Source of the DNA: an uncultured Planctomycetota bacterium
GTDB taxonomy: Bacteria > Planctomycetota > Planctomycetia > Isosphaerales > Isosphaeraceae
Assembly (NCBI GenBank): GCA_963845755.1
Contig: CAWJTV010000019.1
Location: 64,001 to 128,000 of the forward strand
Length of the DNA stretch: 64,000 nt
Reading direction: 5' to 3'
Shown: positions 2,989-13,667 of the stretch, in pieces
Position numbering within the stretch: the first letter of the stretch is position 1
Layout: every line of letters starts with the position of its first letter
The notes under the pieces: generated by a model
What the model was told of the DNA's origin: nothing
The model's database searches: none
What the model saw: the letters and a program-made list of their open reading frames with translations, nothing else
Program-made: the position numbers and the translations under genes

Positions 2989-3540
2989 CTACAGCACGGG
3001 CCGGGCGGGCTTGCCGGATGCGGGGCCATCGGTCTCAAACCGCTCCCACTCGCGACGTACGCAAGACAGACCGAAGGCGCACAGTTCGAACTGCTCGCTG
3101 AGCCGTCGCAGGAGCGGCCCCTCGGAACCGCCGTCGCTGAGAGTGGAAGCGAGGTAGTAGGATCGTTTCCCCTGCTCCTGGTAGCTGATGAGCGAATCCG
3201 CCGAGCCGCTTCCCCTCAGCTTGCTCAGCGCCTCCGGATAGACACCCGTCCAGAACAGGGTGTAGTCCCCGACGTGCCGGTGACATTCACGCCGTCGGGC
3301 CGCGTCGCTGGCCAGCTCGGCCGCCGCGATCATCGCCGCAACCTCGGTCAACGGACGACCTTGCGGATCACGCAGCCGCCAGACGGTTTGACTCGGCACG
3401 AAGTTCGCCAGCAATTCGGCCACGTATCCGACCAGCGGCGGATCGCCGATACCTAGTTCCGTCATGAACGCGTATTCGGTCAGGCCCCGGAAGAGCCGAT
3501 GCAGCGCATGCGATTCGGGGATCGCTCGCAACCTATCCAT
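2989..3540 (-). CDS. Conserved hypothetical protein (planctomycete type)
   Basis: 183-aa ORF with coding-like composition; RECHRHVGDYTLFWTGVYPEAL and YQEQGKRSYYLAS blocks; function unknown. Confidence 0.75.
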   Translation of the reverse strand: MDRLRAIPESHALHRLFRGLTEYAFMTELGIGDPPLVGYVAELLANFVPSQTVWRLRDPQGRPLTEVAAMIAAAELASDAARRRECHRHVGDYTLFWTGVYPEALSKLRGSGSADSLISYQEQGKRSYYLASTLSDGGSEGPLLRRLSEQFELCAFGLSCVRREWERFETDGPASGKPARPVL

Positions 3541-3744: not shown

Positions 3745-4482
3745 TCATCGTCCTCGTTCTCGGTTCGCTGCGCCGTCCAGACGTCGCCAGGTCCGGGCCG
3801 GGTCGGCCAGGACGATGCTCAGGAGGACCATCCAGAGGCCGAACAGCAGGAAGGATACGGTACCCAACGAAGCGATGACCAGGGCATGGGTCGTCAGAGG
3901 AAGCACGGGGCCGCCGCCCAGCTCCAGGCTGCGCATCAGGAGGAACGCGATGAAAATCACCGATAAGGCGACGAAGCCGATCAAGGTGAAGAAAAGCGGC
4001 CGGATCCAGGACTCGATGACGCGGTAGGACATGGGATGGAAGTGGGACAGGCCGGAGTCCGCGGGATCGATGGCCTCGATCTCGTCGGAGCTCGGTGCCT
4101 CGGGCTCGAGAACGTCGGCGCTGACCGCGTGCCAGTCGTCGCTTGAAGCGCCGGGCTCGTCCTTCAGTGCGATGGTCAACTCATAGTGAGAGTCGCCCGG
4201 CCCCAGCTTGCCCATCGACGATTCGGGCTCGTCGAAGGTGGCGACGAAGCCCTCGGCCAGGAAGAGGGCCGGATTCTCGCGAGTCCGGCCGGCCACCGGC
4301 GTCTCGAGGCCCGTACCGCGCCAGGGACCGATCTCCTTGAGGCGGGGCTCGATCGCTTTGAGGGAAGCCTCCGGCATCGGGAAGTTCGCCTGACATTTCC
4401 GGCAACGCAGGCTGTTCGCCGCGGGGACGAGGTGATCGGGCAAGTAGCCCATTCGACCGCAGTTCGGACACCGAATCTTCAT
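3745..4482 (-). CDS. Zinc-ribbon membrane protein
   Basis: MKIRCPNCG..LRCRKCQANF (two CxxC), acidic linker, two C-terminal TM helices; GAGGAG upstream of the ATG. Confidence 0.75.
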   Translation of the reverse strand: MKIRCPNCGRMGYLPDHLVPAANSLRCRKCQANFPMPEASLKAIEPRLKEIGPWRGTGLETPVAGRTRENPALFLAEGFVATFDEPESSMGKLGPGDSHYELTIALKDEPGASSDDWHAVSADVLEPEAPSSDEIEAIDPADSGLSHFHPMSYRVIESWIRPLFFTLIGFVALSVIFIAFLLMRSLELGGGPVLPLTTHALVIASLGTVSFLLFGLWMVLLSIVLADPARTWRRLDGAANRERGR

Positions 4483-4843
4483 GGCCAACTCCTCTTGAAG
4501 GCCATCCTGGCAGCGCCGCCGCTCATCTTGCAAGTTCCAAGCCCGCATTCCAATGGCGTGTGGACAAAAAGCATCATCCTGGTGAGCGATGGGGCGAATC
4601 TCTCCGGATTCCGATCGTGCCGTCGGCTCTAGGTCGCGGATCCCCGGCATTGTGCGAGTCGACGCCGGGGCGAGAGAAATGTCGAGTTACCGGCCTGAGC
4701 CGACCTCCTGAAACGGTGCGTCAGGTTGGAGTAGACTGATGCGGATTATGACTTTGTGGTCAAGTCCTCTTAGGGTCAATTACTTCACCGGGTCCGGCTT
4801 GTCAAGTGCGTGGTGCCCGGCCTGGAGACGATCCGAGGGCGCA

Positions 4844-6375: not shown

Positions 6376-6717
6376 TCAGCGCCCATTTCGATCAGCGTGC
6401 TCGATGACGAGGTAGATGACCGTCGCCACCAGGAACAGGGCGCCCATGGCGATGGCGTAGAGGATGAACAGGAGCATCGGGCCCAGACGCGATTGGAGCC
6501 GACGACGGGCGACCCACCAGCCGGCCGCGCCGATGATCGCATACAGCACGAAGCCCCCGGCCGCCAGGGCGACGAGGGTGGGCTCGTGCACGCGCTGGTC
6601 CTGGATCTGGGCGATGGCGACCGCCACGAACAGGACCAGCAGCGCAAGGTGCCAGATCCGGGGTTGATACCAGCGCGCACCCCGCTCGGGTGGTGGAAAC
6701 GATTGGGCTTCGGTCAT
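6376..6717 (-). CDS. Small membrane protein (3 predicted TM)
   Basis: 113 aa with three hydrophobic segments; AGGA upstream of the ATG; lies between the kinase gene and mgtE. Confidence 0.7.
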   Translation of the reverse strand: MTEAQSFPPPERGARWYQPRIWHLALLVLFVAVAIAQIQDQRVHEPTLVALAAGGFVLYAIIGAAGWWVARRRLQSRLGPMLLFILYAIAMGALFLVATVIYLVIEHADRNGR

Positions 6718-6768: not shown

Positions 6769-9756
6769 TCATTTGACGGGCGGCCCGCCCAGCTCTTGCA
6801 GACGGCGGCGGAGCTCCCAGAGGACGAGCTGGTCGATGCGGCGGATGGCGTCCCCGTCGTCGAATTCGAGCTCGGTCGCGACGCGGACCCAGCACAGAAT
6901 CCGCTCGGCGTCTCCGGGGATGGGGGCAGGGACCCGCCAGTATCGCGCCATCCCGTCGGCACCGGCCGTTGCGAGTCGCCGGCCGTCGGGACTGAATGCC
7001 AGGGCATGGATGGCGCCGCGATGCTCGAGCGGGGGGCCGATCGGCAGGCCGGTGGCGGCATCCCAGAGCCGGACCGACCCGTCCCGGCTGCCGGTGGCGA
7101 CGATCGAGCCGTCGTGGGTGAACGCCAGGCAATCAACGCGTGCCCGGTGCGCGAGCGGCTCGCCGATCGGTTTGCTGGTGTTGAGATTCCAGATCCGCCC
7201 GGTCCCGTCGTGGCAGGCCGTCGCGACCGACTGGCCCGTGGGGCTGAAGGCGACACGGCCAACCTCGGCGCGATGGGCGAACTCCGCGACGAGGTCCCAC
7301 CGGGCCGCATCCCAGAGTCGGGCGCGTCCATCGCTGCAGCCGGTCAGCAGCGTCCGGCCGTCGGGACCAAACGCCAGCGTGGGGACGGCCGCATCGTGCC
7401 GGAGCGTCGGGTCGAGCCAGCGTCCGGTCGCCGTCTCCTGGAACCAGACCGTGCCGTCATCGCCCGCGGCTGCGAGCGGCGTGCCGTCGGGATGGAACGC
7501 GATGGCCAGGACTCGCGCGATTGTGCCGCGCCGACGACGTCTCGCCGATCGGCTGACCGGTTGCGGCATCCCACAGGCCTGGGAGGTCCGCCCGGCTGGC
7601 CGTCGCGACCCTCGAACCGTCGGGGCTGAAGCACACGTCGGTGATCGGGACGTCCTGGCGGTTCGAAACGCCGAGGGCTGCGCCGGTGACGGCATCCCAG
7701 CGCCAGAGCACTCCGTCGTTGCCCGCGGTGGCGATCATCCGCCCGTCGGGGCTGAAGGCGATCGTCAAGACGGCTCCTTGGTGATTCAGGGGAGAGGCCA
7801 GGGGGCGCCCTTGGCGACGTCCCAGAGCCGGCCGGTCCGATCGGCGCAGACGGTCGCCAGGCTCCGCCCATCGGGGCTGAAGGCCACGCCGTGGACGAGG
7901 CCGTGATGCGCGAGGCATCGTTCCATCAGTTTCGCCCCGGCATGCCAGCCGCCCAGGCTGGCGCGGACGGCGCGCTCGAGGCCCGGCGAGTCGGGCGGGA
8001 TGCTCTCGAGGGCCCGGGCCAGCCAGAGCAGGCCCTCGCCGTGCAGCTCGTGGCCGAAGAGGTTGTGGGCGCGCTCGATGCAAAGCCGGGCCAGCGACCG
8101 CTTCACGTCATGGGTCGCCTGCTCCTGCTCGCTGCGATATCGGACATCCGCCATCCAGGCTTCGATGCCCTCGGCCAGGGCCGTCGGGGTGGCGTGGCGA
8201 TCCTCCGGCTGAAGTGCCATGGCCTTGAGGCAGATCGTCTCCAGCGCCGGATCGATCGACCGCCGCAGCCGTCGCGGCGCGGGGAAGACGCCGTGGCGGA
8301 CCCGTGTCAACACGTCGGCAACTCCGCCCGTCGGAAAGGGGCCATGTCCCACCAGCAGGCAGTAGAGCGTCGCCCCGAGGCTATAGACGTCGCTGGCCGG
8401 CCCGACCCGGTCCCGATCGCCCGACGCTTGCTCGGGGCTCATGTACTGCGGTGTCCCGATCGCCGAACCGGGGCGGGTCAAGGAGGAATCGTCCTCGCCC
8501 GCGAGCGGATCGACGGAGCCTTTATCGGCCGCCTCATCCCCGCGTTCTCCGAACGGCTTGGCAATCCCCCAATCGACGACGAGCGTCTCGCCGAACCGGC
8601 CGAGCATGATGTTCTCAGGTTTCAGGTCGCGATGGACCACGCCACGACTGTGCGCGTAGGCGACCGCGTTGCAGGCGTCGATGAGGCTGCGCAGCAGGCG
8701 ACGGAACCCGATCTCCCGATCGCCGGGCTGGCGCGCCGATCCCGACGCCTCGTGGAACCGCTCGATCGCCTGTTTGAGGGTCTCTCCTTCGATGAACCGC
8801 ATCGCATAGTAGGGACGTCCGTCGGCATACTGACCCAGGCCGTAGACCGGCACGATCCCCGGGTGCTCCAGCCGACCCGTGACCTTGGCCTCCAGCAGGA
8901 AGCGCGCCTGGCTGACCGGATCGTCCGCGCGATCGGCTCGCATCTCTTTCAAGGCGACCTGGCGATCCAGCTCGGGATCGAGCGCGAGGAAGACCTCGCC
9001 CAACCCGCCTTGCGCATGCGCCCGGACGATGCGGAACCGCGCGTTCGTACGGCCGGGGTCGACGGGGTGATGCGTGGTCTGATGGGATCCTTGATAGGCG
9101 ACGGTGGCGGTGAGATCCGCGGATCCGATCGAGACTGCGTCATCGCGCTCCGCATGACCGGTGCCTCCGAAGACCGGGCCATCCAGCGGGATACCGGAGG
9201 CACACAAGGGACAATGTGAAGGCTCCCAGAGGTGGTTCGGCAAGGATGCGAGGCTTTCCAGAGAGGCGCCCTCGCTCGCGGCGAAGGGCGAAGCCGATGA
9301 CCCGAGAACCAGCAGCGCGCCGACGACGACCGGTCGCGCACCGCAGGCCTTCAATGCCGCGAAGGCCCCGCGAACCGCGGACCCGGCGTTGATGACGTCG
9401 TCCACGACTGCGATCATCTTGCCACGGACGATCGAACGGAGCGCTTCGGGAATGCGATAGCCGATGGGAAATAGGCCGTCGCTCTGCGGTCGGGCGAATT
9501 GCTCCGCGAACGTGAACGCGACATCGATTTCCTCGGCGACCATCTGCGACAGGAACGCGCCCTCGACCAGGGGGCCGCAGACCGCCTCGATGCCGTGCGC
9601 GGCGAGCCGATGAGCCAGTTCGACTGCGAACGGCCGGAGACGGCCAGGGTTCAGGTAAAGCCGGGGTATCTCCAGCCAGAGGTCGCCATGATGGCCGGAT
9701 TCCAGCCGGAAGTGCCCCTTCCGCGGTGCCAGGAGGCTGAGGAGTTCTTCCTGCAT
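6769..9756 (-). CDS. Apparent fusion of PyrE-like phosphoribosyltransferase, Hanks Ser/Thr kinase and WD40 propeller (frameshifts near 7800 and 7520)
   Basis: N-terminal GHFRLESGHHG, VVDDVINAGSA (PRPP-binding) and CPLC; kinase motifs GGLGEV, VALK, HRDLKPEN, DWG, GTPQYMSPEQ; about 9 WD repeats (AFSPDG..LWD) over three frames; AGGAG RBS. Confidence 0.8.
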
Positions 9757-9931
9757 CGGATCATCTCCTGCACCGGTCCGCCGTCGATCCCCCGCTGCAC
9801 GAGCTGGGGAATGTCCCCGTCTTCACCTCATCCCCGAGGAATCCAGTCGCTAGCGATCAGGATCCCCGCGGGGTAGCATGTCCTGGCGGAGCAGGGCGCC
9901 TGTTACCTCGGAACATCCAAGGATACTAACC

Positions 9932-10923
9932 ATGAGCGATCATCTCGGCAAAGGCCACCTCGCGCGTTCCGATCGGAGAGGGTTCCTCAAGCGAATGGGA
10001 CTCGGGGCGGCGGTAGGGCTGGCCGGCGGTGCTTCCAGTCGCGCCCAGGTGGCGAAGTCGGGCCTCGACGAGCCGACGGCGCATCCGCGGCGGACTTCCA
10101 TCGGCGTCTCGACCTATTCCTTCTGGCAGTTCCGCGGTCGCCGCCTGGACATCGTGGATTGCATCGACAAGGCCGCGGCCATGGGGTTCGACGGCGTGGA
10201 GGTCCTCCACATCCAGATGGCGGACGATTCGAACGCGACCCTCCAGAAGATCAAGCGACGCGCTCACTCACTCGGGCTGGCCTTGATGGGGTTCTCCACG
10301 CATCAAGGTTTCGTCACTCCTGACCTGAAGGATCGCCAGGCGAATGTCCAGAAGACGCTCCACCAGATCGACGTCGCGTATCGGCTCGGCATCCCGACGA
10401 TGCGGATCAACACCGGCCGGTGGGGTACGACCCGATCGTTCGACGAGCTGATGACCCACAAGGGGATCGAGCCCGCACTGCCCGGCCATAACGATGAAGA
10501 GGCGCTCAAGTGGGTGATCGACTCCCTCGAGAAGCTCCTGCCACGCGCCAGGAATGCGGAGTCGTGCTCGGGCTGGAGAACCACTGGGGCCTCGGTCGCA
10601 CGGCCGAAGGCGTGCTGAAGATCGTCGAGACCATCAAGTCGCCATGGCTCCAGATCACGCTGGACACCGGCAACTTCCTCGAGAACACCTACGAGCAGAT
10701 GGAGCGCATGGCCTCGAGCTCGGTCCCGCTGGCGCTGGTCCAGGCCAAGACCTACTTCGGCGGCGGCCGATGGTACGCCCTCGAGCTCGATTATCCCCGG
10801 ATCGCCGGTATCTTGCGCAAGCACAATTACCATGGCTGGATCTCGCTGGAGTTCGAAGGCAACGAGGACGCCCAGACCGGGGTTCCCAAGAGCCTGGAGG
10901 TGTTGAGGAAGAGCTTTGGCTGA
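9932..10923 (+). CDS. Tat-exported sugar phosphate isomerase/epimerase (xylose isomerase-like TIM barrel), frameshift near 10550
   Basis: DRRGFLK Tat motif; GFDGVE, LGLENHWG, LDTGNF, ISLEFEG motifs. Confidence 0.88.
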
Positions 10924-10934
10924 AGCGGACAGAA

Positions 10935-12153
10935 TCAGTGAACGATCGTAAATCCGCCGTCGGGCCGGGCGACGACGGTCGCCAGGCCCCAGACGGGCAC
11001 TCCGTTCGCGACCCGGCCCTCCGTCCCGATCGGGCGGCCGGCTCGATCGAAGACCTGCCAGACCAAGGAGCCCCCCTTCTGCCAGCCGGTGCCCTCGGTC
11101 CAGACCAGGATCATCTCACCCCGGGCATTGCCGGCCACGGTCGGATGCTTGCGATCCCCGCGACCACCCGCCGGGGCGATTGGCGACGTCGTTTCGTGCG
11201 ATGTCGGATCGACCCGGCAGAAGTAGACCTGTCCCTGGGTCTCCCAGGCCGCCAGGATGCCCGAGCCCGTCTCGGCGAGCGAGGCGCTGCTCATCGGGCA
11301 CGCGTTCACCTTCCAGGGGTGGACCGAGGCGCCCCGAAAATGGCCACCGTGGTCGTCTGAGGTCAACAGGTAGATGTCCCGCTCGACGTTCCGTGTGGCG
11401 GCTCGGTACAGGACATAGACCGTTCCGCGATGGTCGGCCAACGCGCGCGTGCCGCAGCAACCGCAGGCACCCGTCTCTTGTTCAAGGGCGGGTTGCTCGG
11501 CAGCAAAGGTCGCTCCATCGTCCTTCGAAACGCGCGACCCACATGCGCCGCCCCGACTCACCCGGGACCGAGTCTTCCGTCCGTGCATGCCAGGCCACAT
11601 GGACGTTCCCCTCGCGATCGGCGGCGATCGTCCCGCCTCCGTCGAGGGCGGACGTCCGTTGCATCAGGTTGCGCTGCGGCTCGAAGGCCAGGCCCTGACC
11701 TTGAGTCTCCTGACCCCGCTCCTCGCGAGATCGTGCAAAAAGCATCGGCGAGCCGCCGGGCGGGCTCTTGGGAAGTGCGCGATTCGAACCGTTCCAGGCG
11801 ACGTGGATCCGTCCGACGCGTCCCAGGGCGATCTGACCGCCGCGGATCGTCCCGATCGCGATCGCCGAGCCGGGCTGGCTGTTGACCGGGACCGGCGCGG
11901 CGAAGCGATCCGCGCCCGGCTCGCGGCTGGTATAGAAGAGGTCGCCGCCGGCCGGATCTCCCTTGTAGAAGAGCAGGTGGATCACGCCTCGATCGTCGAT
12001 CACGGCCTGGGGCTGGATGCCCCCGTCGGGCGTCTCGAGCACCGTCACACGACCGGGGCCGCGCGCTTCATCGGCCCCAACGGGGCACCCCAGCAAGGCG
12101 CCGAATGTTGTGAGCATCAGGAAGCCGAACCGGGATCGGATTGATCGCATCAT
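10935..12153 (-). CDS. Secreted BNR/sialidase-like beta-propeller protein, frameshift near 11525
   Basis: Signal peptide; Asp-box-like SKDDGATF and SDDHGGHF; GACGCCG and WKVNACPMS motifs. Confidence 0.7.
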
Positions 12154-12181: not shown

Positions 12182-13667
12182 TTAAATCGTTCCGTGCCCT
12201 GGTCGAGCGACAAGCTCCTTGACCACCCGACCGTGGACATCGGTCAGGCGGAAGTCGCGGCCGGCGTATCGATACGTCAGTTTCTCATGGTCGAAGCCCA
12301 GCAGGTGGAGGATCGTCGCGTGCAGGTCGTGGACGTGGACCTTGTCGGCGACGGCTGCGAATCCGAGCTCGTCGGTGGCGCCGTGGACATATCCGCCGCG
12401 CAGCGCCGCCGCCGGCCATCCACATCGAGAACCCATAGTGGTTGTGATCGCGGCCCGAGAGCGCCGGCAGCTCGGCGACGGGCGTCCGGCCGAACTCGCC
12501 GCCCCAGATCACCAGCACCTGATCGAACAGCCCGCGCTGTTTCAGATCGGCCAGGAACGCGGCAATGGCCCGGTCCCACTCGGCGGCGAGCTGCCGGTGG
12601 TGGGCCGCGAGGTTCTCGTGATCGTCCCAGGGCTGGCTGGCGCCGCTCCAGACCTGGATGAACCGCACGCCGCGCTCGAGTAGCCGGCGGGTGATCAGGA
12701 GCTGTCGGGCCTGTGTGCCGGGGCCGTACAAGGCGCGGATCGACTCGGGCTCGCGATTGATATCGAAGGCGTCGGCCGCCTCGCCTTGCATGCGATAGGC
12801 CAGCTCAAACGATTGAATCCGCGCCTCGAGCGCCGGGTCGTGCGGCCGGATCGCCGCATGACGCTCGTTGAGCCCGCGCACCAGGTCGAGCTGCCTTCGC
12901 TGTTCGTCCAGGGGCATCGCGGTGTTGCGGATGTTCTCGATCAGCTTGTCAACGGTCGTGTGCTGGGTGTCGATGTACGTCCCCTGGTAGGCGCCGGGGA
13001 GGAACGCCGTGCGCCAGTTCTGGGTCGCGACGATCGGATAGCCGCCCGGGCACATCGCGATGAAGCCGGGGAGATTCTGGTTCTCCGAGCCCAGCCCGTA
13101 GGTGATCCAGGCCCCCATGCTGGGGCGCTGCAATCGGCCGTCGCCGCAGTTCATCAGCATCAGCGACGGCTCGTGGTTGGGCACGTCGGCGTACATCGAG
13201 CGGATGATGCACAGGTCGTCGATGTGCTGCTCGGCCGTGCGGGCGAACAGCTCGCTCACGGCGATGCCGCTCTCGCCGTACTCTCGGAACCGGAACGGAG
13301 AGCCCAGCGCCGCGCCGGTCTTGCGCTCGGTGCGGAGGTTGGGACCCGGCAGCGGCTTCCCGTGGTATTTCGCGAGCAATGGCTTGGGGTCGAACGTATC
13401 GACATGCGACGGGCCGCCGTTCATGAACAGGTGGACGACCTGCCTGGCCTTGCCGGGGAACTGGGGAGGCTTCGGCACCATCGGGCCGAGCGACCGAGAT
13501 GAGGCCGGCGATTCGGCGCGCACGGCAGGAACCAACCCCAGCGAACGGTCATCGGCCAGCACGCCCGCCAGGCCGATCAGCCCGAACCCCATGCCGCACC
13601 GACCGAGCAAATCGCGGCGGGTCAGGGCGGAGCGGGGATCGGTCTCGGGCAGAGAATCGTGCGGCAT
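12182..13667 (-). CDS. DUF1501 family protein (Tat signal), frameshift near 12400
   Basis: [58 protein letters not shown]. Confidence 0.92.

Follow-up and report, generated by a model that had tools for sequence, protein, structure and literature searches.

Gene organization at the locus

The window, i.e., the whole stretch of 64,000 nucleotides that was analysed, belongs to the genome of an uncultured bacterium of the family Isosphaeraceae (Planctomycetota), whose assembly comprises 14.27 Mb in 49 contigs (64% GC, 88% complete) and contains 272 kinase-like loci. On the reverse strand, a frame starting at the ATG at 9756 encodes a complete phosphoribosyltransferase-like (PRT) domain with the motifs VVDDVINAGS and CPLC, a linker and an intact Hanks-type Ser/Thr kinase domain, and is free of stop codons throughout these parts (Table 1). 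The kinase domain matches PF00069 with 106.5 bits (threshold 31.7, E-value 2e-30), and all nine fused proteins possess the motifs GGLG, VALK, HRDLKP, DWG and SPE as well as the helix-C glutamate E289. By these motifs the domain is a Hanks-type kinase, for which phosphotransfer activity is predicted. As the original prediction had stated, there is no obvious transmembrane segment: in the six intact homologues the maximal Kyte-Doolittle value of any 19-residue stretch was only 1.4–1.8, and this maximum lies in the PRT core.

Table 1. Domains of the fusion gene and the gene downstream of it, given in window coordinates.
Feature	Coordinates	Strand	Basis or remark
PRT-like domain, residues 1–193	9178–9756	−	Type I phosphoribosyltransferase fold; Pfam PF00156, TIGR01367, AF2 model, residue tables
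Linker, residues 194–236 (43 residues)	9049–9177	−	(S/P)(A/P)TV motif retained from the N-terminal arm of unfused kinases
Hanks-type Ser/Thr kinase domain, residues ~240–535	8152–9039	−	PF00069 and motifs: GGLG loop, VALK, HRDLKP, DWG, GTPQYMSPE
Helical connector, residues ~536–605	7942–8151	−	Without transmembrane segment; helices in the low-confidence part of the full-length model
WD40 propeller, ~8 repeats by strand count	6922–7941	−	Split in the assembly by two indels; pLDDT mostly 85–94 in homologue P0004
Conserved helical tail at the C-terminus, with the true stop codon	6769–6921	−	Homologue comparison
113-aa three-TM protein gene, downstream	6376–6717	−	No Pfam or NCBIfam family above cut-off

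Integrity of the reading frame

According to the original prediction, a single ORF runs without a stop over the entire span from 9756 to 6769. This was wrong for the whole span, but right for the PRT-kinase junction, as the ORF starting at 9756 ends at a TGA (7788–7786) downstream of the junction, after one WD repeat and 656 aa. The 996-codon translation down to 6769 contains three stops, and the remaining WD40 repeats are encoded in a second frame (approximately 7800–7520) and then again in the first one. In comparison with all five aligned relatives, a base is missing from the G-run at 7801–7805 of the window, and an additional base is present near 7519; these two indels split the WD40 part into three segments, with the one in the G-run creating the false stop at 7788–7786. 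The missing G is present in a 151-nt Logan contig (depth 2), which is otherwise identical to the window; the site at 7519 lies outside of contig coverage. The breaks in the WD40 part are therefore most likely assembly errors, a true decay of the WD40 frame in the source strain being a residual alternative. Further window-specific indels are found at about 10549 and 12402 (in all four alignments spanning them), which brings their number to at least four 1-bp indels within 7.5–12.4 kb. Three of the five relatives have indels of their own at other sites.

Such a density of indels would speak for an artefact, as would a GGAGG (9168–9164), an ATG (9155) and an ATGA (9143–9140) within the linker, which had led to the caveat that two missing bases might make a two-gene operon look like a fusion. 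All three elements do exist and are out of frame. However, a 279-nt contig (depth 4.8), which may derive from the source sample, spans the junction (positions 8975–9253) with no differences and no gaps. Moreover, the frame of the ATG at 9155 terminates ahead of the kinase motifs, none of the five relatives has a GGAGG followed by an ATG at ribosome-binding distance, and the kinase has neither a start nor an N-terminal module of its own. With six intact homologues and an in-frame junction in each of the six genomes concerned (see below), read-through of an operon is rejected at the DNA level, and the chance that the junction is an artefact of any kind is practically negligible.

Occurrence and conservation of the fusion

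Among 42 proteins of at least 350 aa which match the PRT domain, nine also contain the kinase (one being the window's own protein), and six of these are intact, with lengths of 984–995 aa and mutual identities of 75–89%. Of 121 genomes of the family, many of them incomplete, six were found to have the PRT domain, namely the two from the window's genus and all four from one other genus. As the junction with the kinase is in frame in all six genomes having the domain, with no split junction and no stop in any linker, the fusion does not go back to chance. The PRT-kinase-WD40 architecture put forward by the original prediction is consequently real and is conserved among related genomes; its known range comprises two uncultured genera.

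For ten pairs from five genomes, dN/dS values (Nei-Gojobori) were 0.15–0.27 for the PRT domain, 0.16–0.31 for the kinase and 0.43–1.34 for the linker. These ratios indicate that the PRT domain, like the kinase, is under purifying selection, and both halves stayed under selection up to a dS of about 0.5. In all fused copies, 34 of the 37 subfamily-invariant columns of the PRT domain are kept. As the linker evolves almost freely, a tight allosteric coupling of the two halves is not indicated. An unconstrained linker would also fit with a passenger enzyme, i.e., an active PRT with a substrate other than orotate, which was inserted at the start of the kinase and is co-translated with it while both halves work independently. 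Against such independence stand the lasting selection on both halves and the lack of any split junction in six genomes, whereas purifying selection as such is equally compatible with an enzyme passenger and with a sensor.

Origin by exchange of an N-terminal domain

Orthologue-level matches to the kinase-WD40 part exist in 37 of the 121 family genomes, always one per genome. Unfused Isosphaeraceae orthologues, including that of Singulisphaera acidiphila (P0262), comprise 860–893 aa and are 60–74% identical to the fusion over about 80% of its length. They begin with a module of approximately 65 aa, behind which comes an arm bearing the motif SATV. In the fusion this motif is retained and the module is absent. 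At all 14 unfused loci examined the module is present and the PRT domain absent, and one of them (in genome G093) has the same flanks as the fusion, a divergent sugar-isomerase-like gene and the gene for the three-TM protein. A single domain swap thus explains the architecture better than read-through, as the unfused orthologues bear an N-terminal module of their own, one of them at the very same locus. In a quick tree (search without bootstrap; input of 57 of the 111 unfused matches, four proteins being left out), the fused kinases group together, apart from the 53 unfused ones (SH-aLRT 95). In a PRT tree of the same kind, from which loci that were partial, duplicate, weak, frameshifted or fused had been excluded beforehand and ten identical rows removed (214 to 204), the fused PRT domains form one cluster (support 82), which also contains two unfused PRTs (P0043 and P0064) whose placement is weakly supported. 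It is likely that the ancestral N-terminal module was replaced by the PRT-fold domain once. Since close relatives of the domain occur in Binatia, Acidobacteriota, Actinomycetota, Chloroflexota and others, its distribution suggests a horizontal acquisition.

Apart from the N-terminus, the fusion shares the kinase, the helical connector, the WD40 array and the C-terminal tail with the Isosphaeraceae orthologues and with the Ser/Thr kinase-WD40 proteins described for Planctomycetota (PMC11032199). That paper reports mostly membrane-spanning proteins with periplasmic WD40 domains, which differs from the fusion with its lack of a transmembrane segment. The terms Pribosyltran and PF00156 do not appear in its text and one supplementary file, both possibly partial. 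A PRT-fold domain on a protein kinase was found nowhere in the literature searched, which included few subscription journals, and the view that the architecture is undescribed thus holds for this literature, although automatic JGI labels do list all three domains. The pairs of fused and unfused orthologues make it possible to study, as in a clean natural experiment, how new inputs are acquired by the expanded kinase families of planctomycetes.

A likeness of the displaced module to MshEN domains, suggested by its motif, was tested by a profile search and by motif counts. With a profile of 33 rows (a version of 13 rows was also run) against the PDB, the top 8 of 19 matches were PilF, MshE or PilB (E-values 0.0016–0.16). 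A relaxed 24-residue MshEN motif with a free first residue occurs in 46 of 95 unfused N-termini, compared with 0.14 in shuffled sequences; the strict motif occurs in five of the 95. In PilF, a Leu at the first motif position still allows tight binding (PMC11731258). Canonical MshEN (GSPII) c-di-GMP receptors comprise two tandem motifs of 24 residues, and fusions of MshEN with kinases are mentioned in PMC5013675, the source of the relaxed motif. In the 46 N-termini, the displaced module fits one such motif in relaxed form; its motif 1 ends in Trp instead of Gln and its motif 2 mostly has Ala instead of Gly. None of its 33 members was recognized by the Pfam MshEN model, and the ESM Atlas returned unnamed clusters only. 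The module, which is present in unfused orthologues and absent from the fusion, appears to resemble the c-di-GMP-binding MshEN domain, a weak likeness with a best E-value of 0.0016. If so, the PRT domain would occupy the likely input position of the kinase.

Identity of the PRT domain

The PRT domain has the type I phosphoribosyltransferase fold: it scores 27.7 bits against PF00156 (threshold 26.3), its AF2 model (pLDDT 94) matches 4PAW best (Z 19.0, rmsd 4.0, 181 aligned residues, 26% identity), and homologue P0093 hits PF00156 clusters only in the ESM Atlas. 4PAW is H. pylori HP1257, a member of the PyrE_Therm family (TIGR01367), with which the domain shares the fold, the GHF..SG.H hairpin, the GP motif and the terminal CPLC. 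Its subfamily has a signature of its own (GHFxxESGHHGxLWL, CGPxx[EG]G, Y100, [DN]DVI[NS]AGSA, LG, CPLC), with E19, H22, H23, W27, C60, Y100 and D120 as invariant residues peculiar to it and with the conserved arginines R12, R101, R107 and R129.

JGI automatically names members of this subfamily orotate phosphoribosyltransferase, and these names as well as the best family and structure matches (PyrE_Therm, H. pylori HP1257/PyrE) would speak for an additional, catalytically active orotate phosphoribosyltransferase attached to a kinase. However, the TIGR01367 scores of 63.8, 62.4 and 60.5 bits (window, L017 and L018, respectively) stay far below the cut-off of 150.25. In type I PRTases, basic residues serve the pyrophosphate. 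As the lysine K103 of Salmonella is not universal, it was dropped as a single test, and the best 20 of 36 TIGR01367 proteins above the cut-off were used as references instead. In 22 of the 43 columns conserved in these 20 references the subfamily differs, including four arginines and KPGSR. R86, R97, R98 and R151 are kept by none of the ten fused copies: R86 is replaced by Q in all of them and R97-R98 by P-V/I; TTGGS became NAGSA, and both Q29 and G65 became Glu, with Glu65 sitting in the loop after beta-1. Position 151, which corresponds to the orotate-binding arginine in the (D/N)R motif behind the final core strand (R156 in Salmonella), is Arg in 20/20 references and Leu in 10/10 fused and 199/202 unfused members. 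In the basic flexible loop (ER...LRRGF, residues 85–100) the mean number of Lys plus Arg is 3.75 in the references, 1.1 in fused and 1.46 in unfused members, and no fused copy has a Lys within residues 85–104, compared with 15 of the 20 references. Loop lysines, among them K103, are important for OPRT catalysis (PMC10087573, PMC5430920). Furthermore, a separate canonical pyrE scoring above the cut-off exists elsewhere in the source genome, homologues of it occur in all five fused relatives, and 24 of 28 genomes with an unfused PRT contain another PyrE above the cut-off. A second orotate phosphoribosyltransferase is rejected on account of the low score, the replaced arginines and the separate pyrE, and is extremely improbable; the annotation of this common PyrE-like subfamily is probably wrong. 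Of the complete PyrE-like PRTase with an intact PRPP site that had been predicted, the 5′-phosphate loop stands in altered form, but the basic residues that PyrE_Therm conserves have been lost, which makes PRPP doubtful as a ligand.

PRT folds are reused as effector-binding domains on DNA- or RNA-binding regulators such as PurR and PyrR. A further precedent would be an APRT homologue of Thermus thermophilus, reportedly an inactive protein that acts as nucleotide-dependent regulatory subunit of glutamate dehydrogenase (Tomita 2019). By analogy, it would regulate another enzyme as proposed here for the fused PRT domain, but it is a separate subunit of the APRT lineage with a metabolic enzyme as output. 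GfcR of Haloferax volcanii is a PyrE-like inactive PRT; it has no OPRT activity and instead binds sugar phosphates (PMC10838023). It resembles the fused domain in its PyrE-like fold, the retained phosphate loop, the changed pyrophosphate side and a true PyrE alongside. In GfcR, PurR and PyrR the output is an HTH or RNA-binding function, unlike the protein kinase of the fusion, in which Pfam revealed no HTH domain. The PyrR model (19.6 against 138) and the GfcR model NF045507 (19.9 bits against 300, for L018) likewise indicate that the domain is not a member of the PurR, GfcR or PyrR families, which lowers the case for its being one of these regulators, not the case for its working like one.

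All 120 of the best near-length matches listed have 190–250 aa, and most loci of the subfamily are standalone. This, the strong conservation of the subfamily and a distinctive pocket unchanged in the fused copies suit the independent enzyme introduced above, as does the fact that no conserved neighbourhood indicates signalling. Clustering of the neighbourhoods of unfused PRT loci did not reveal a conserved pathway, but lineage-specific neighbours and shadow frames only. On the other hand, the basic residues for pyrophosphate (K103, PMC10087573) are missing, the event cost the kinase its original N-terminal module, and 22 of the 42 long matches are fusions of the same subfamily to GNAT acetyltransferases, another protein-modifying output. 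The latter hint at a repeated use of the PRT domain beside protein-modifying enzymes. Altogether, an independent passenger enzyme is a possible, though rather doubtful, explanation. A sensor role is weakened mainly by the fact that the fused PRT domains are no more degenerate than their unfused relatives, the two looking alike; R12, R101, R107, R129 and the invariant residues peculiar to the subfamily could serve a different catalysis.

A putative metabolite-gated kinase

A homodimer is predicted for the PRT domain with an ipSAE of 0.77 (best of three controls 0.00), contacts agreeing to 93% and a pLDDT of 85–88; 20 of 30 solved homodimers attain the ipSAE mark, compared with 1 of 23 monomers. 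The domain is thus predicted to dimerize, and the prediction may reflect memory of solved PRT dimers. Hanks-type kinases are activated through dimers (PMC6333020). Both points would also suit a constitutive dimerization or scaffold module, by which the PRT domain merely replaces the lost module as dimerizer, with no regulatory ligand. Such a role is unlikely, as pocket residues and not the interface alone are kept in all fused copies, and as columns of the interface are not favoured in conservation over the rest (0.88 vs. 0.89 in fused, 0.68 vs. 0.73 in unfused members). A full-length AlphaFold2 model of P0004 (alignment of nine rows; pLDDT 52, pTM 0.44) is confident for the WD40 part alone and uninformative on the packing of PRT domain and kinase.

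The predicted dimer, the activation of Hanks kinases via dimers and the precedent of GfcR together favour a metabolite-gated kinase over a passenger enzyme or a plain dimerizer. We infer, with a probability of roughly one half, that the protein is a cytoplasmic one-component Ser/Thr kinase-WD40 protein, the PRT domain of which would act as a dimeric sensor of a phosphorylated metabolite that switches the kinase. PRPP is a less likely ligand than a nucleoside monophosphate or the phosphate of ribose or another sugar. The PRT dimer would hold two kinase domains together on tethers of 40 residues, and the phosphate of the ligand would sit in the DDVINAGSA loop. Its binding could change the geometry or stability of the dimer and thereby alter activation-loop autophosphorylation of the RD kinase, while the WD40 propeller might recruit substrates. 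Each part has a known fold, and there are precedents for the logic; PRT-based sensing wired to protein phosphorylation would be previously undescribed. In addition, the fusion offers autophosphorylation as a read-out for the ligand of a common PyrE-like subfamily.

More speculatively, the PyrE-derived subfamily as a whole could be a dedicated receptor for a phosphorylated metabolite or nucleotide signal, plugged independently into GNAT acetyltransferases and into a Ser/Thr kinase, where it would have displaced a module resembling a c-di-GMP receptor. This wider idea is tentative; if true, protein-modification signalling would have a new kind of modular input domain, and the kinase would be a chassis on which one nucleotide-type sensor has been exchanged for another.

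Genomic neighbourhood

As predicted, the gene for the three-TM protein and mgtE are co-oriented with the fusion gene, mgtE lying approximately 0.4 kb downstream in the source genome. A kinase sensing PRPP or nucleotides and possibly tied to magnesium uptake had been proposed, which would amount to a Mg-PRPP sensor linked to MgtE, and 10/10 fused copies indeed have an intact DD pair in the PRPP motif. However, in all five fused relatives the mgtE orthologues (82–91% identical) are located on other contigs, and mgtE is present at none of the 5 fused and none of the 14 unfused loci examined. The adjacency is therefore peculiar to the source genome and the magnesium link fails; considering also the lost loop arginines and Glu65 in the loop after beta-1, a Mg-PRPP sensor of this kind is very unlikely. 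The gene for the three-TM protein, in turn, is found downstream of the kinase at five of six fused loci and at one of 14 unfused loci, and is a conserved neighbour of the fusion, at most a putative partner.

Genes flanking the kinase fusion

The gene of the three-TM protein is present in one copy in the window's source genome, and is kept 3′ of the kinase in five of the six fused loci as well as in G093, a genome encoding the unfused kinase between the same flanks. In genome G001, a 1.5-kb insertion that contains a 261-aa ORF (L005:7779-8564) separates the isomerase-like gene from the fusion. For the 183-aa protein encoded downstream of mgtE, neither Pfam nor NCBIfam matches were found. Near 10549 and 12402 the window carries indels of its own, which suggests that the assembly is prone to errors.

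Genes in the neighbourhood of the kinase fusion
Feature	Window position	Strand	Remark
113-aa three-TM protein	6376-6717	-	downstream of kinase
183-aa protein and zinc-ribbon membrane protein	2989-3540 and 3745-4650	-	downstream of mgtE
Xylose-isomerase-like TIM barrel with twin-arginine-like leader	9878-10923	+	appears frameshifted
Unannotated protein, two ORFs (split)	10935-12153	-	appears frameshifted
DUF1501 gene	12285-13667	-	appears frameshifted

Distribution of the PRT subfamily and of MshEN-like modules

Unfused members of the PyrE_Therm-related PRT subfamily (L019-L047, L049-L083), annotated in databases as pyrE, are widespread in Binatia, Acidobacteriota, Actinomycetota, Chloroflexota and Verrucomicrobiota, and no conserved neighbours were found at these loci. 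One speculation is that the subfamily could coordinate a metal through its E19-H22-H23 hairpin together with C60 and CPLC. A C-terminal fusion with a GNAT acetyltransferase occurs in 22 clusters (P0010-P0028, P0031, P0033, P0035), of which 15 form one group in the PRT tree (support 99); in the GNAT-fused proteins the DD of the motif is mostly replaced by ND. Fusions to a NUDIX, an ankyrin and a DUF849 domain, each seen once, may represent read-through. Another divergent PyrE_Therm-like protein (L006, G037:C1:6095337-6095855; 28% identical), from a host of another family within the same class, contains DDIVNTGHS and an intact LRRG loop.

The MshEN-like N-terminal module of the unfused kinases was found at 25 places in the window's source genome (e.g., C39:397458-397667), 15 of which share an open frame with a kinase HRD motif. 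Possibly, these modules of the Isosphaeraceae constitute an unrecognised family of c-di-GMP-receptor-like kinase inputs.
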